Shown here: piece after piece, positions 3,384 to 44,594 of the stretch
Position numbering within the stretch: position 1 is the stretch's first letter
How the letters are laid out: every line of letters starts with the position of its first letter
Origin: an uncultured Alphaproteobacteria bacterium
GTDB lineage: Bacteria; Pseudomonadota; Alphaproteobacteria; RF32; CAG-239
DNA: 64,000 bases
Direction of reading: 5' to 3'
Assembly: GCA_944393235.1 (NCBI GenBank)
Contig: CALXZJ010000003.1
Span: 4,291-68,290, forward strand
The notes under the pieces: generated by a model
Told to the model about the DNA's origin: nothing
The model's input: only the letters and a program-made list of their open reading frames with translations
The model's database searches: none
Program-made: the position numbers and the translations under genes

Positions 3384-6300
3384 ATGTTTTCAAAGATTTT
3401 TATTGAGCGTCCGCGCTTCGCGATGGTGATTGCCATCGTGATGGCGCTTGCGGGCGTTATTTCTCTGTTTTCGTTGCCGATTTCACTTTATCCGCAAATT
3501 ACGCCGCCACAGGTTCACGTTTCGGCAAACTATACGGGTGCCAGTGCGGACGTGGTGGCCAGCACGATCGGTATTCCGATTGAGCAAGAAGTCAACGGCG
3601 TGGAAGACATGCTTTATATGGAGTCAACTTCTTCCAACTCGGGCGATTACAGTTTGTCGGTCAGCTTTGAAGTGGGCACTGATCCGGATATGGCGCAAGT
3701 TAAGGTGCAAAACCGTGTGCAACAAGCTGTCAATAAACTGCCGGCTGAAGTGCAACAGTACGGCATTAGCGTTCGGCGTCGTTCCTCGGATATTTTGGGT
3801 TTTTTGAATATTCGTTCGCCAAACGGGACGCATGACACGCAGTTTTTGAGCAACTATGTTGAAAACAACATTAAAAATAACTTGAGCCGTGTGTACGGCG
3901 TGGGCGACGTGAGTGTGCACGCCGCGCCTTTGAGCATGCGCGTGTGGCTTGATGCCGATAAAATTACGGCTTTAAATATCCCGATTTCAGCCGTAAGGTC
4001 GGCGATTGAAAGCCAAAACTATCAGCCGTCTTTGGGTTCGGTCGGCGCTATGCCGGGCGACGGCGGTCAGCAGATGATGTATTCTTTGCAAACGCAAGGC
4101 CGTTTGAATGAGGCTAAAGATTTTGAAAATATTATCGTTCGCACCGAGCAAGACGGCGGATTGGTTCGCTTAAAAGATATTGCCAAAGTTGAAATCGGCA
4201 CGGAAACGTATATGGTTAAATCCGAGCGTGACGGTGCGCCTTCGGTGGCAATTTCATTGAACACCTTGTCGGGTGCAAACGCCATTCAGGCCATGACGGC
4301 GTTGAAAGCTGAATTGGAGCGTTTGTCACACTTTTATCCGGACGATTTTGAGGTTGATATTTTTTATGATGCAACCGAATATATCGTGGCCTCGGTTGAG
4401 GAAGTGGTATTTACGCTGGTGCTTACTTTTGCGCTGGTTATCGGCGTATGTTATGTCTTTTTGCAAGACTGGCGCTCAACCCTTATTCCGTCAATTGCCA
4501 TTCCGGTGTCTTTGCTGGCAGCATTTGCGGTGATGTATGCTTTGGGCTTTAGCTTAAACATTCTGACATTGTTCGGTTTGGTGCTGGCTATCGGCTTGGT
4601 GGTGGATGACGCCATTGTGGTGGTGGAACGTGTTTTGACGTTGATGGAAGAGGAAAAATTAACCCCGAAGGAAGCTGCCATTAAAGCCATGGAGCAGGTG
4701 TCAAGCGCGGTTATCGCGACAACGTTGGTGTTGATGGCTATTTTCGTGCCGATTGCGTTTTTGGGCGGTATTACCGGTAAAATTTATCAGCAATTTGCCG
4801 TGTCTATTTCATTTGCGGTGTTGTTCTCGGGTATTAACGCTCTGACGTTGTCGCCGGCTTTGTGCGCGACGATGTTGAAACCTTTAAAACCGGTGACGCA
4901 TGGTCCTTTGGCGTGGTTTAACAAATTGCTTTCCAGAACGCGCAACAAATATTTGGCAGTGGTGGCTTATTTTGCCCGTAAAGTGAGTGTGATTGCGCTG
5001 TTTTTGGGGTTGTTGGTGTTTTTTAACGGCATATTCCTGAAGTTAAGCAACACAACCTTTATTCCGGCTGAAGACCAAGGTGTTATTTTGGCAAATATTC
5101 AATTGCCGGAAGGTGCGACACAGCCGCGTGTTGAGAAGGTTGTAGATGAGATTTTGCCGATGATTAAAGCTGAAAAAAGCGTGCAGTCGGTGATGACGAT
5201 TATGGGCTTTAGTATGCTTTCCGGTCAAGGCGAAAGCGTGGCAATGTCGGTTATCAGCTTGAAACCGTGGGGCGAGCGTAAGGAAGATTCGGAATATTCA
5301 ACCAATATTTTGAACCGTTTGAAAGCACAGTTTTCACAAATTCCGGATGCGGAAATCAACTTGTTTGAGTTTCCGGCCATTCCGGGGTTGGGTACAACCG
5401 GCGGTATGGATTTCCGTTTGCAGGCGTTGGATGATACCGACCCGAAACATTTGGAATCGGTCTTGCGCAGTTTCTTGAGCAAGGCGCAACAATTGCCGGA
5501 GATTTCGTATGCGTTTTCAACCTACACGGCTGAAACGCCGCACGCTTATATTGAAATCAACAAAGAAAAAGCCGAGGTAATGAACGTGCCGATAAGCAAT
5601 ATTTATTCGGTTTTGCAAAATTACCTTGGTTCGGGCTATGTTAACGATATCAATATCGGTACGCAGGTTAACAAGGTGATGATTCAAGCCGACTGGCCAT
5701 ATCGTAAAGATATTGACAGCATCAGCAAGCTGTATGTCCAGAGCACGACCGGAAATATGGTGCCGCTGGGCAGTTTGGTGTCGGTTAAGATTATTCAGGC
5801 GCCGCGCAGTATTGACCGTTATAACCAATATCCGAGTGCGACGATTACAGCAATGGCTAACTCTTCGGTCAGTAGCGGTCAGGCGATGGCAGCTCTGGAA
5901 AAACTGGCGGAAGAAGCTTTGCCGGAAGGTTACAGCTATGAGTGGTCGGGCATGAGCTTGCAAGAGCGGCAAAACAGCGGGCAGGTCGGTATGTTGATTG
6001 CGCTTGCCGTGGTGTTTGGTTATTTGTTCCTGGTTGCCCAATACGAAAGCTGGATGTTGCCGGTATCGGTGCTGACATCGGTTACGGTGGCGGTGCTGGG
6101 TGCATTCTTGGGCCTGTTGATTACCGGTATGCCTTTGAGTATTTATGCTCAATTGGGTTTGGTGTTGCTGGTTGGTCTGGCAAGTAAAAACGCCATTTTG
6201 ATTGTGGAGTTTGCCAAAGACGAGCGCGAAAAAGGCGTCAGCATTCAAAAAGCGGCGGTTACCGGCACGCGCGAAAGATTCCGTGCGGTGTTGATGACGG

Positions 6301-41465: not shown

Positions 41466-42476
41466 GTGATTCAGAAAAATTGGCAAGAACTTATTAAACC
41501 AACTAATTTAGAAGTTACTTCCGGCGAAGGCGGAAATAAAGCTAAAATAGTGGTAGAACCCCTGGAGAGAGGTTTTGGTTTGACTTTGGGCAATGCCTTG
41601 CGCAGAGTTTTGCTCTCCTCGTTGCAGGGTGGTGCGGTAACCGCCATCAAGATTGACGGCGTTCTGCATGAATTTTCAGTTGTTCCGGGCGTCCGTGAAG
41701 ATGTGACGGATATCGTCTTAAACGTTAAAGGGTTGGCAGTGGCTGTTCATAATGAAGGTCAAAAAATAATGACCTTAAAAGCGGAAGGTCCCTGCACGGT
41801 AACGGCAGCAATGATTGAAACCGGTCATGATGTCGAAATTATGAATCCGGATCATGTTATCTGCAATTTGGATGCAGGTGCAAAAATTTCTATGGAATTG
41901 ACGGTGGATACCGGCAAAGGTTATGTTCCGGCTTATCAGAACAAGCCGTCTGATGCACCTATCGGATTGATTGCCGTTGATGCAATTTATTCTCCGGTCA
42001 AGAAAGTGTCTTACAAAGTTGAAAATACTCGTGTCGGTCAAATTACCGATTATGATAAATTAACTTTGGTGGTTGAGACCAACGGCGTCGTTTCGCCGGA
42101 AGATGCCGTTGCTTATGCGGCGCGCATCCTGCAAGACCAACTCAAACCGTTTATTAACTTTGACGAGCCGGAAAATGAAGTTGAAGACGTTAAGGAAGAA
42201 CTACCGTTCAATCGCAATCTCTTGAAAAAGGTTGATGAACTTGAACTTTCCGTTCGTTCCGCCAATTGTCTCAAGAACGATAACATCGTTTATATCGGCG
42301 ATTTGGTACAAAAGACCGAAGCCGAAATGCTCCGTACGCCAAACTTTGGTCGCAAATCTTTGAACGAAATCAAAGAAGTCCTAGCCAAAATGGGCATCCA
42401 TCTCGGTATGGAAACCCCGGGTTGGCCGCCGGAGAATATTGAGGAGTTGATTAAGAAATGTGACGACCACTTCTAA
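41466..42476 (+). CDS. rpoA: RNA polymerase alpha subunit
   Basis: [27 protein letters not shown]. Confidence 0.98.
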
Positions 42477-42586
42477 AAAGTTCGTCTAACGGTCATCTAC
42501 TTGCAAGCCCTGTCACTCATGTACTGTTTTGTGTACACTTCGTGACAGGGCTTGCGGCGTATCTGACGCGTTATCCGAACTTTTTA
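42474..42586. repeat. Palindromic element A (RPE/REP-like) starting at the rpoA stop
   Basis: taaaaagttcg/cgaacttttta outer arms; gcaagccctgtcac/gtgacagggcttgc; central tgtac...gtaca; catct...atctg signature. Confidence 0.8.
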
Positions 42587-42836
42587 AGCGGCTTGACCGA
42601 ATGGTGGTTTGGAGTTGCAAGGAAGCTTTCTGCGTATCTGTCTCATTCTTTGCGCTTCTTGTGTAAAAAGGGGTTCGGCGTATCTGACGCGTTATCCGAA
42701 CTTTTTAAGCGGCTTGTTCGGAGGGTGGCTTGAAGTTGCAAGGAAGCTTTCTGCATATCTGTCTCATTCTTTGCACTTCTTGTGCAAAAAGGGGTTCGGC
42801 GTATCTGGCACATTATCCGAACTTTTTAAGCGGCTT
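42555..42836. repeat. 121-bp tandem repeat (about 2.3 copies)
   Basis: 40-mer cggcgtatctgacgcgttatccgaactttttaagcggctt at 42555, 42676 and (variant) 42797; intervening 81-bp segments nearly identical. Confidence 0.9.
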
Positions 42837-42864
42837 ATTTGTGCTGATGTTTTGAGATGTATTT

Positions 42865-43833
42865 TTATTTAAAGTTGATATGCATGTATAAGGAACCTTC
42901 TTCAATGACATGGGCACAAGCGTTTCGAATTTGGTTTAAGGTTGCTGTTTGAAGTGTTTTATTATTGTCGGTATTATGAAAATAATAGTTGGCTCCTTTT
43001 GAACTCCATATTCTGAGCGTTGTAACATTTTCATATTCTTTGGCATGGTTAATGATGCTTTGACAATAGAATATTTCTGTTTCCCGGTTGTTTAAATTTC
43101 TGGCATTTATGCTGAAAGTTCTGGTTTGTCCATTGCCGATTTCGGAGACAGCCATTTCGTGGCCCAGTTTGTCATAAACATGATTAAGGACGTTCTTTTT
43201 TATCATATCGCCGGGGATGAGATTCATTTTTATAAAATACGGAATATAACCAACTGATGATGTGTGTGAGGATTTAAATTCGTCTTTATATTCATTTGCC
43301 AGATATATTATATAAAATGTTTGTTCCAAACTTTTATTAAGCCGATATTTCATCATGGCTTTAGAGTAACCGGCAATCGCGCCGACGCTTAAAACGCCGA
43401 TAATAGCCAGCACGCCGAGCATCTCCACCATAGAACGACCGCATAACGGCACATCTGCTTGCCTTCTTCTCGCTCGTGTACTATTTTTGTACACGTCGCT
43501 CAAACAAGGCTGCGCATCTGCACCCTTCTTCGGTCGTTCACCTCTTGTGCATAGAGCCGCATCTACTTGCAACTTTTCTCCTCGTGTACCTAATGTTGTA
43601 CACGTCGTCGAAAAGTTACGGCGTATCTGCAGCCCTCTGCGCAAGAATGAAAATAAGAAGGAAATCGCGTATAATGGCACATCTAAAGCGCTTTTACGCG
43701 AAGTCGGAAAATTCACGTACGTCTTTTGTACGCTAGGATTTTCCTCCTCGCTAGAAGGCACTTTATCTGCACCATTCTCCGCAATTTCGTTGTGAGCAGG
43801 TGAAGAGGATTTGAAAAAATTGAATAAATTCAT
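42865..43833 (-). CDS. Type IV pilin-like protein with a repeat-derived leader of about 132 aa
   Basis: G|RSMVEMLGVLAIIGVLSVGAIAGY class III signal (Glu+5), two Cys in the mature domain; AGGAG RBS before the ATG at 43833. Confidence 0.8.
   Translation of the reverse strand: MNLFNFFKSSSPAHNEIAENGADKVPSSEEENPSVQKTYVNFPTSRKSALDVPLYAISFLFSFLRRGLQIRRNFSTTCTTLGTRGEKLQVDAALCTRGERPKKGADAQPCLSDVYKNSTRARRRQADVPLCGRSMVEMLGVLAIIGVLSVGAIAGYSKAMMKYRLNKSLEQTFYIIYLANEYKDEFKSSHTSSVGYIPYFIKMNLIPGDMIKKNVLNHVYDKLGHEMAVSEIGNGQTRTFSINARNLNNRETEIFYCQSIINHAKEYENVTTLRIWSSKGANYYFHNTDNNKTLQTATLNQIRNACAHVIEEGSLYMHINFK
43433..43788. repeat. Three in-frame palindromic elements (B 43433-43539, C 43543-43646, D 43661-43788) inside the pilin leader
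   Basis: Each has catct...atctg and a central gtac-N7/8-gtac hairpin; C shares catctacttgcaa and cggcgtatctg with element A. Confidence 0.8.
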
Positions 43834-43878
43834 AAAAAAGACTCCTAAGAAAAGCCAAAGAACATATACTTGCCCGTC

Positions 43879-43905
43879 ATTCTAAACCGTTTTTTTTTTT
43901 TTCAA
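43879..43905 (-). promoter_or_regulatory. Pilin promoter with an A13 tract in the -35/-10 spacer
   Basis: Minus strand TTG-A13-CGGTT-TAGAAT = TTGAAA-N15-TAGAAT. Confidence 0.6.
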
Positions 43906-43965
43906 TTTTAAAGAGTCTGGTGGGGATAAGTTTCTACTGTTACTTTATCATCATGCCCCAATCCT

Positions 43966-44167
43966 CGTCACCCCATGAGCCGACAACGTCGGCGAATTTA
44001 GGGGTCTCTTCCTATACATGCGACAGACGCCTAACCTCGAGTGCTAAAGCACTCTCAGGGCGTGACAGGAAAGGGGTAAATTGTGTGGTAGACGCCTTAA
44101 CCACCGCGCTATCGCGCGGCGGTGGCGTGACGGGGAAGGAAATCGTGTGGTGGTGGCGTGACGGGGA
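43966..44167. repeat. Cluster of CGTC-type REP-like hairpins
   Basis: cgtcacccc...ggggtct followed by opposite-orientation agacgcc...ggcgtgac units (44025, 44090) and a partial copy at 44152; internal hairpins. Confidence 0.65.
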
Positions 44168-44345
44168 GGGGAAGCGCACTCTTGAGCGTGTGAAGGAAAA
44201 GAGAATCGTGCAGAGGTGGGTAATGGAGAAAAGAGGGACATTTATCTTAAAATATTAATTGGTACAAAATGGTATTGATTGATTAAGCAAGATAAAATTT
44301 GACAAAAACAATATTTTTGCTAAACTTAAACAAAGGAGTTTGAAG

Positions 44346-44594
44346 ATGAATAGCCATAAGGTTGTAAAAAAAGCTGCCGGCGGCATTTTTGGCAGTGCCG
44401 GTTATGTGCTTAAGCTTGCCGAGAGAAATTTGAGCGTTGCTGAAATTGTTTTGAATGGTGCTAGAAATATGGCGGATGGCTTTGTCAAGGCTCCGGAATT
44501 TGGTGTTGGCAAGGCTGCTTTTGATATGACCCAAAAAAGTGTGTCAACTTTGGCGAAAAAGTTTATGAAATATAGTAAAAGGATTGCCAGATAA
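44346..44594 (+). CDS. Hypothetical protein
   Basis: AAGGAG RBS, TTGACA promoter upstream, TAATG overlap with the next gene. Confidence 0.6.
   Translation: MNSHKVVKKAAGGIFGSAGYVLKLAERNLSVAEIVLNGARNMADGFVKAPEFGVGKAAFDMTQKSVSTLAKKFMKYSKRIAR

Follow-up and report, generated by a model that had tools for sequence, protein, structure and literature searches.

Palindromic repeats stacked in frame in the long leader of a predicted type IVb-like pilin from an uncultured gut alphaproteobacterium

Introduction

A 64,000-nt stretch of DNA from an uncultured gut alphaproteobacterium (the window; positions 4,291 to 68,290 of contig CALXZJ010000003.1, assembly GCA_944393235.1) contains an open reading frame (ORF) for a pilin-like protein that starts with a leader of 132 residues. 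Type IV pilin leaders have some 5-30 residues. Nearly all of the long leader is made of three tandem palindromes, here called elements A, B and C, and the locus raises the question of how such repeats came to lie within a coding sequence and what, if anything, they do there. A preliminary description of this sequence likened them to Rickettsia palindromic elements (RPEs) and proposed that a leader cut off from the protein would be a safe haven for a selfish repeat. We find that the elements are multi-copy, share one orientation relative to the pilin genes, remain open in the pilin frame and keep their hairpins, while the peptides that they encode vary freely. The reading we favor, with a probability of about two in three, is that A, B and C are non-autonomous palindromic repeats, similar to RPEs and to MITEs (miniature inverted-repeat transposable elements), that reside in parts of gene products that are trimmed away and are shuffled among pilin paralogues by recombination.

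A prepilin with a 132-residue leader

The features of the gene and its leader, in window coordinates, are:

42865 to 43833, minus strand: prepilin ORF of 322 residues (132-residue leader, 190-residue mature pilin-like protein, then stop), from the reading of the ORF
43842 to 43846, minus strand: Shine-Dalgarno (SD) sequence AGGAG, 8 nt 5' of the ATG, from the sequence
43831 to 43833, minus strand: start codon ATG, from the sequence and a survey of open frames
43786 to 43830, minus strand: element-free 5' part of the leader (NLFNFFKSSSPAHNE after Met), common to short-leader paralogues of the MNLF type, from the sequence
43660 to 43785, minus strand: palindromic element A, 126 nt, 42 codons (IAENGADKV...DVPLYAIS), fold of -54.7 kcal/mol, z -7.2
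43648 to 43659, minus strand: T-rich linker between A and B, 12 nt, from the sequence
43543 to 43647, minus strand: palindromic element B, 105 nt, 35 codons (FLRRGLQIRRNF...VDAALCTR), fold of -53.6 kcal/mol, z -9.8
43433 to 43539, minus strand: palindromic element C, 107 nt, fold of -56.2 kcal/mol, z -9.4
43435 to 43440, minus strand: codons for G(-1) and R(+1) of the putative prepilin peptidase site G/RSMVE (slash at the expected cut; E at +5), from an alignment of 56 homologues
42868 to 43437, minus strand: predicted mature pilin-like domain, 190 residues, from AlphaFold2 and Foldseek

The AGGAG ribosome-binding site, the ATG at 43833 and the leader of about 132 residues before G/RSMVE are all present in the ORF, as the preliminary description had it. 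The prepilin begins with MNLFNFFKSSSPAHNE; the glycine of GRSMVEMLGVLAIIGVLSVG is residue 132, and 190 residues follow. G/RSMVEMLGVLAIIGVLSVG is present. Residues R1, S2, M3 and E5 and the hydrophobic residues that follow are invariant in the 56 aligned homologues, as is G(-1), and conserved across 65 paralogues of the same genome. The prepilin has G(-1), E(+5) and a hydrophobic helix, as in a class III signal peptide, and scores below threshold with the two profiles for the N-terminal methylation site (Pfam PF07963, 12.2 bits vs a cut-off of 21.2; TIGR02532, 9.4 bits vs 16.3). A search of PDB sequences with the pilin found nothing. Homologues are numerous (6980 proteins at E <= 0.001 among 8000 scored candidates), and the family is very large in metagenomes.

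The AlphaFold2 model of the mature part (pLDDT 85.7, pTM 0.80) has a helix at residues 3-49 packed against a beta-sheet. Type IVb pilin chains account for seven of its eight best Foldseek matches in PDB (9iuf_A, chains of 8uhf, 3fhu_A), with probability 1.00 and TM scores of 0.45-0.59; the best E-value, 1.2e-3, is slightly over the tool's line of 0.001. The structures matched are the type IVb pilus of enterotoxigenic Escherichia coli, TcpA of V. cholerae and PilS of S. Typhi. The ORF thus probably encodes a pilin with a type IVb-pilin-like fold, as judged from the model. The protein resembles TcpA, CofA and PilS in its mature size of about 190 residues, its long N-terminal helix on a beta-sheet, G(-1) and E(+5), but differs in the 132-residue leader, the N_methyl profile scores below cut-off and the arginine at +1. 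Cleavage at G/RSMVE would be carried out by a prepilin peptidase, and a gene for an A24 enzyme is present in the genome (Peptidase_A24, C5:12287-12631, 60.9 bits). Genes for a T2SSE ATPase (C2:17633-18850), two shorter PilT-like ATPases and a secretin (C2:22140-22679) were also identified.

The genome of origin (G000) is a 1.43 Mb draft in 62 contigs with 41% GC, and many of these contigs stop within a pilin 5' region. A six-frame motif search identified 65 pilin N-termini, which are near-identical (GRSMVEMLGVLAIIGVLSVG, for example on contigs C1, C4, C7 and C17). About two thirds of the 65 paralogues have leaders of 5-8 residues, such as MRENG, MRECG and MKHINENG. Element-free paralogues have MRENG or MNLF...ALCG before the cleavage site, which bears out the earlier suggestion that an ordinary short leader is left when the elements are removed. 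Among relatives, pilin searches gave two matches each in G009, G014 and G022 and 24 in G015, rough counts (as in G016 also), because search matches are not copy numbers.

The upstream region and the N-terminal coding region are nearly identical among the pilin genes. One feature of the upstream region is needed below:

43879 to 43905, minus strand: conserved motif TTG-A13-CGGTT-TAGAAT, putative promoter, with a poly-A tract at 43890-43902, from the regions upstream of the pilin genes

The motif, with the form TTG(C)-A9..A13-CGGTT-TAGAAT and an assembled tract of mostly A12, precedes 41 of the 65 pilin genes. The SD-ATG pair lies about 41-45 nt from TAGAAT in short- and long-leader paralogues alike. 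A strict sigma-70 scan did not report the motif, so that we treat it as a possible promoter. The homopolymer occupies the position expected of a promoter spacer, where slipped-strand phase variation of each paralogue could occur.

Anatomy of the elements

The three tandem palindromes occupy nt 49-401 of the leader without a stop in the pilin frame, as first described; B and C are separated by 3 nt and A and B by the 12-nt linker. Each folds alone into one long bulged hairpin, and none of 200 shuffles of each was as stable. Taken as a whole, the 5' region of 441 nt has a fold of -187.1 kcal/mol (z -12.0; 0 of 100 shuffles as stable). A, B and C have a common build: terminal inverted repeats (for example GAACGACCG/CGGTCGTTC), a tip of the form GTAC-loop-GTAC and, on either arm, a copy of (C/T)AGAT that faces the same way in both and forms an unpaired internal loop. 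The right terminal repeat of C, CGGTCGTTC, encodes the G-R-S of the cleavage site, and the right end of B also supplies G-R-S, in other codons (GGAAGAAGT). Two further observations of the preliminary description are accurate, namely the core TCACGTAC-N7-GTACGCT, which is the tip of A on the plus strand, and the similar peptides ADKVP...DVPLY and ADAQP...DVPLC.

Contigs assembled from public metagenome runs of three studies span each junction of the leader (pilin-C, 43420-43524; C-B, 43495-43572; B-A, 43624-43696; A-5' leader, 43676-43788), although one run is perhaps the source sample of the genome and paralogue C19 has the same A-B-C block. The runs that hold the sequence come from chicken or bird gut. 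No Rfam family matched 42300-44500 at E <= 1, and a terminator scan reported no sites. The left arm of A contains GAGGAGG (within 43700-43745, minus strand), and its right arm contains an in-frame GTG (ATG in G010 and G013), which a gene caller used, as ATG, for the start of P0136. An internal start within A is conceivable, but read-through of B and C would still be needed here.

Copies in the genome of origin

Comparison of A, B and C with the genome (blastn) gave 66 high-scoring segment pairs (HSPs), 13 of them for element A. All but nine (57 of 66) are found upstream of a pilin N-terminus and within 360 nt of it, and all 57 are on the pilin strand. Six of the remaining nine are at contig ends, where the assembly is broken within a leader, two are in the transfer-messenger RNA (tmRNA) gene and one is weak. 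The signature AGAT...GTAC-loop-GTAC...AGAT has 24 genomic matches, 23 in pilin leaders and the other 3' of the pilin gene described here. The enrichment of a multi-copy family in GRSMVEM pilin leaders, which was suggested as a test in the preliminary description, is thus borne out. Element C is present also in leaders of the MREN type (MRENGRNDRP...AVLSGRSMVEM). The match outside the leaders is:

42470 to 42589, minus strand: fourth element of the superfamily (AGAT...GTAC-loop-GTAC...AGAT), 3' of the pilin stop and co-oriented with the pilin, dG -67.5 sense and -60.6 antisense

Searched against 1.84 billion protein representatives, the leader peptide matches only 64 clusters, and 51 of these have G[RK]SM[VI]EM downstream. 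The other 13 are one unrelated 775-residue tandem-repeat protein and 12 fragments of 47-151 residues. Among the fragments are pilin 5' ends that are broken, a spurious ORF lying over the tmRNA spacer and another over a 121-nt repeat (described below). We recognized no non-pilin host protein for the leader peptide among these 64 clusters.

Open frame, peptide and hairpin

Leader copies of the elements are free of stops in the pilin frame (0 of 26 copies of B, 0 of 40 of C and 0 of 16 leader-length copies of A), whereas all 12 distinct 122-nt intergenic copies of A in the related genome G014 contain them. The other two sense frames have stops in most copies, with the exception of frame 2 of C (stops in 8 of 40). 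We surveyed 150 distinct pilin 5' regions from the genome of origin and from loci L002-L092, of which 83 carry elements. In 66 of the 83 the frame is open to an SD-ATG upstream of all elements. By inspection, one further region, which has an ATG and a weak SD, is intact; 12 extend past the end of a contig, and four are broken (one frame break, two frameshifts beside the start and one lost ATG). In two element-bearing genes of the genome of origin, on C4 (pilin at rc 5856) and C56 (pilin at 350), the SD-ATG is one base out of frame; one of these slips adjoins a T8 run, and pseudogenes, sequencing errors or homopolymer switches are possible. In locus L002, up to 189 codons are open upstream.

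Diversity is similar at codon positions 1, 2 and 3 (B, 0.154/0.157/0.161; C, 0.122/0.145/0.118; A, 0.093/0.101/0.141), and nonsynonymous codon differences outnumber synonymous ones by about 2-3 to 1 (B, 172:55; C, 206:63; A, 61:30). Because the codon positions vary equally, the encoded peptide is not conserved as a protein. The pattern indicates that in leaders only the openness of the frame is selected, the amino acids being unconstrained. The outcome that would have spoken against inserted repeats, a single-copy leader conserved as a peptide, is not what we found, as the elements are multi-copy and all three codon positions vary to the same degree.

The hairpin is maintained. Pairing is kept in 93.4% of cells in 30 copies of C, and likewise in 22 copies of B. 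In those copies of B, compensatory changes occur at 7 of 38 pairs, with 35 cells changed on both sides, and the covariation score is 0.181 vs 0.123 in shuffles (0 of 500 as high; slid partners <=0.070). Element C varies too little for a covariation signal. Of 105 copies in all, 102 fold better on the sense strand than on the antisense strand, among them 14 of 14 intergenic copies of G014; the same holds for each of the 24 genomic signature copies. Since the intergenic copies share it, this asymmetry is a property of the element and not of pilin mRNA. The asymmetry is taken from independent folds of the two strands, because counts of G:U vs A:C cells (86/4, 81/20 and 124/29) are biased: pairs were predicted on the sense consensus, which under-counts A:C.

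Turnover among paralogues

Element turnover is fast, with presence/absence polymorphism among near-identical pilins. The mature parts of P0002 and P0003 are identical to this pilin at 189 of 190 positions, and their leaders contain B+A (86 residues) and A alone (60 residues), respectively, vs A+B+C (132 residues) here. P0001, P0005 and P0007 (179-181 of 190 identical) have A+C, A and B, respectively. Orthologues and near-identical paralogues exist with and without elements, as the preliminary description anticipated. Conversely, paralogue C19 has an A-B-C block that is 98% identical over 354 nt, upstream of a mature domain that differs and groups elsewhere on the tree. For a tree of 63 paralogues (a quick IQ-TREE maximum-likelihood search; 2 of 65 anchors were dropped because of a mature part <150 residues or an open end), the label 'element', carried by 19 rows, requires 17 changes (shuffled mean 16.5; 368 of 500 shuffles as low). 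Element-bearing leaders are scattered across this tree, and several well-supported sister pairs differ in leader class.

We found at least 17 architectures and 68 complete elements in 87 distinct long leaders. Chimeras make up 12 of the 68, and in 11 of the 12 the break is at the shared AGAT motif. One chimera, on contig C20, joins the left half of B to the right half of C and has a broken frame. Metagenome contigs from runs of two studies show joints that skip B and C, from 43434 to 43661.

Related genomes and the tmRNA spacer

Of 24 other genomes from the same family, 20 match the leader DNA, as against none of 16 genomes outside it. Fetched copies in G010, G011, G013 and part of G008 are in frame within pilin leaders. 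All fetched loci of G014 (14 of 14) and G022 (6 of 6) are intergenic, with no pilin beside the element. The elements are older and wider than the pilin leaders, given matches in most genomes of the family and intergenic positions in some.

The genome of origin has a two-piece (permuted) tmRNA gene (C27:2319-2792, plus strand; confirmed by ARAGORN; tag ANDNFAPVAVAA), and its spacer contains one C-like palindromic element (C27:2489-2564). The spacer is empty (6-20 nt) in G013, G051, G020, G041 and G012, and filled in others, with five tandem elements in G001, two in G024 and several in G014, G015 and G047, all in the orientation of the gene. The tmRNA spacer is a second haven, excised from the product as the prepilin leader would be. 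The earlier proposal of a safe haven for a selfish repeat is supported, but the haven is not specific to leaders in the wider family, as the intergenic and tmRNA copies demonstrate.

A sister lineage of predicted pilins with GRSMIEM has open N-terminal extensions of 174-259 residues (P0131, P0140, P0142 and P0154). They contain an A-type element together with other repeat families (with motifs such as LDSRVKPEND and VILGFIPRIH), and the true start codons of these four are doubtful.

Mobility and comparison with known repeats

Searches with rve and DDE_Tnp_1 gave no DDE transposase in the 62-contig draft, in which a transposase could be unassembled. The sole Y1 gene (G000:C8:2141-2605, 154 residues, 139.4 bits vs a cut-off of 55) encodes an IS200/IS605-family transposase. 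We rejected it as a RAYT, the transposase type associated with REP repeats (REP_Tyr_transpos, 36.1 bits vs a cut-off of 80). As a mobiliser of the elements it was also set aside: searches for an IS200-family gene found none in G001, G002 and G005, which are rich in elements, but did find one in G009, for which the element search was negative. Three hairpins precede the IS200-family gene and are unlike A, B and C. Given the near-identical flanks of the pilin leaders and the movement of whole leader blocks between paralogues, homologous recombination or gene conversion is probably the main means of spread within the family.

Hidden Markov models of RPE domains belong to NCBIfam. The 131-residue leader matched no family there at E <= 10 and only N_methyl in Pfam at E <= 1, so that the search against RPE profiles proposed in the preliminary description gave no match. 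Because of this, and because the host is an uncultured gut alphaproteobacterium and not Rickettsia, the likeness to RPEs stands as an analogy and not as homology.

A review (PMC2229807), which summarizes Ogata et al. (2000, 2002), describes RPEs as 105-146 bp long and in frame in 19 protein genes, and also in the genes for tmRNA and M1 RNA. A, B and C fit the definition in that source of an in-frame palindrome of about 105-146 bp in ORFs (PMC2229807). The likeness extends to terminal inverted repeats, a small-genome alphaproteobacterial host, stop-free in-frame insertion in protein genes, further copies in tmRNA and intergenic DNA, and no known transposase (PMC2229807). RPEs differ in lying in surface loops of many unrelated conserved proteins and in being kept in the mature protein (PMC2229807), whereas here the coding copies are confined to the presumably cleaved leader of one gene family and are stacked up to three or four.

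With MITEs such as the 107-bp form of Correia/NEMIS, ERIC and YPAL/RU-2, the elements share the form of stem-loops of about 100-170 bp, intergenic positions or in-frame ORF fusions, and hairpins transcribed along with neighboring genes (PMC2229807). In Yersinia, a MITE makes up part of a predicted signal peptide, and other bacterial MITEs are also in frame (PMC2229807). Terminal inverted repeats, multiple copies and filled and empty sites, in both pilin leaders and tmRNA spacers, are all found here. The differences are that we found no TA or other clean target-site duplication and no parent insertion sequence (IS) with matching ends, that location and orientation are almost exclusive within the genome, and that AGAT is on both arms in direct orientation, as unpaired internal loops. 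No related autonomous IS or transposase was identified in the 62-contig draft. Repetitive extragenic palindromic (REP) sequences and REPINs, which RAYT transposases mobilize, resemble the elements in being palindromic and in folding in a strand-specific way, and the genome does encode a Y1 HUH transposase. That gene, however, scores below the RAYT cut-off and shows no co-occurrence with the elements across relatives; the hairpins beside it differ from A, B and C, and no RAYT gene associated with the repeats was found. Literature searches, covering titles and the openings of abstracts, returned no description of palindromic elements in prepilin leaders or of this pilin family.

Flanking sequences

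A second repeat lies between the pilin and the fourth element:

42542 to 42836, no strand assigned: 121-nt tandem repeat, two full copies and a partial third, between the pilin stop and the fourth element (repeat families D1 and D2)

It shares the motif CAGATACGCC (minus strand reading) with element B. The copies are 88-100% identical and open in several frames, and give rise to spurious short database proteins (e.g., P0165). On the other side, 5' of the putative pilin promoter, 43950-44250 includes a stretch rich in GC (as high as 58%), which contains direct repeats of 31 nt (44111-44172) and the short palindrome GCCGACG..GTCGGC. Other pilin paralogues are preceded by similar sequence.

Two genome scans for hairpins are of restricted use. 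An ungapped scan gave 145 hits and was uninformative, missing the leader elements because their arms contain bulges. A sliding RNAfold scan of contigs C1-C12 pointed to the hairpin at 42470-42589 and to hairpins 5' of pilin promoters; it folded the plus strand only and thus missed minus-strand elements.

Origin and persistence of the elements

We propose that the elements, of 105-126 nt, form one family native to this family of uncultured gut Alphaproteobacteria, and that they persist where they would be harmless, in the prepilin leader, the excised tmRNA spacer and intergenic DNA. In leaders, the sole need would be a pilin frame open from the SD-ATG to the cleavage site; amino acids would drift while the sense hairpin is kept. 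Translation would then run through the elements, with the 132-residue leader cut off afterwards. Elements that have reached a leader may then be copied, deleted and reassorted between the 65 pilin paralogues. Homologous recombination or gene conversion is the likely means, using the promoter and N-terminal flanks, which hardly differ from gene to gene, and one type of element would cross over to another at GCAGAT, the motif that they share. The elements are probably neutral in these positions.

Several observations weigh against this proposal. The element copies are related by descent, so their counts are not independent events, and the surveyed loci were partly retrieved with leader motifs and are enriched for long leaders. 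In the genome of origin the elements almost wholly avoid ordinary intergenic DNA, where plain selfish spread would predict them. No transposase is linked to the elements in this draft (the IS200-family gene does not co-occur), and no clean target-site duplication was found: the G-R-S codons flanking C are repeated but not identical. In the MREN-type leaders these flanks have different codons, and the right copy belongs to the terminal repeat itself. The better fold of the sense strand and the co-orientation with transcription wherever its direction is known hint at a role or constraint at the RNA level. The sole RNA run (X11) covers 43186-43406 and 43903-43984 at a depth of 2.3, outside the leader. 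No type IV pilin leader as long as 132 residues is known to us, no search having been aimed at this, and processing of this one is therefore an assumption.

Alternative explanations

The hairpins may instead be a domesticated regulatory module of pilin mRNA, a stack of very stable stem-loops close behind the start codon that sets translation rate, mRNA half-life or processing by RNase III. Each of the 65 paralogues would then be tuned or silenced according to how many elements it has and of which type. The strand asymmetry, the compensatory changes that maintain pairing in B, the element-free first 48 nt of the leader and the switches of leader composition between near-identical genes would all suit such a module, as would the co-orientation with transcription that is seen for the leader copies, for the element 3' of the gene (42470-42589) and for the copy in the tmRNA spacer. 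However, the asymmetry is equally present in all 14 intergenic A copies of G014, and about two thirds of the paralogues do without elements despite the same promoter and SD. Nor was a terminator-like site or an Rfam match found, and the one RNA run lies outside the leader. We consider a regulatory module possible but rather unlikely.

A related and, in our view, unlikely scheme is a combinatorial switchboard at the 5' end, in which recombination deals different sets of A, B and C to the 65 paralogues, and mRNA structure and the slippery poly-A tract of each promoter decide which few pilins are made. If true, it would be a pilus-variation system of a small-genome gut symbiont, built from palindromic repeats domesticated in the leader.

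The palindromes could also act at the DNA level, as recombination hot spots (cruciforms or hairpins) that drive the swapping of 5' cassettes among pilin paralogues and would then take part in antigenic or phase variation together with the promoter poly-A tract. The chimeras, nearly all broken at AGAT, the many architectures, the uncoupling of leader type from mature-domain phylogeny, the A9-A13 tract upstream of 41 of 65 genes and the metagenome joints that skip B and C are in line with this. Yet ordinary homologous recombination would itself be expected to cross over at the only sequence that A, B and C have in common, paralogues and not alleles may account for the joints, and no dedicated recombinase was identified. 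Leader swaps would also change no antigen, because the exchanged part would be removed from the protein. A hot-spot function is accordingly improbable.

Least credible is a start of translation near the cleavage site, with the elements as a long structured 5' untranslated region or the long-leader genes as pseudogenes and the open frame as a by-product of element composition: frame 2 of C is indeed free of stops in 32 of 40 copies, 4 of the 71 element-bearing genes that could be assessed are broken and gene-called 'leaders' of the sister lineage are open to 259 residues across other repeat families, but the pilin frame is stop-free in 82 of 82 leader copies vs stops in 12 of 12 intergenic copies of A, element units and junctions alike have lengths divisible by three throughout the 17 or more architectures, the spacing of SD-ATG from the upstream motif is alike in short and long leaders, and no SD lies 5' of the SMVEM methionine.

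Implications

Palindromic repeats lying in frame are already known, first from Rickettsia, and have passed for a peculiarity of bacteria with an obligate intracellular life. In the present case a family of unrelated elements lies in frame in genes of free-living gut Alphaproteobacteria. What is new is the concentration of coding copies in the presumably cleaved leader of one expanded gene family, the stacking of up to three or four elements into leaders of 132 residues (up to 189 open codons in L002), and the parallel haven in the tmRNA spacer. Together, the two havens suggest a rule that such elements settle in the parts of gene products that are trimmed away, which gives a picture, open to testing, of how selfish DNA comes to occupy neutral positions within genes. 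There are practical consequences also: pilins predicted by gene callers are given leaders of 60-260 residues, and pilin loci are points where assemblies break. The pilin family itself is expanded (65 in 1.43 Mb vs 2 matches in some relatives) and has signs of rapid 5' exchange and possible phase variation, and it may matter for colonization of the gut.

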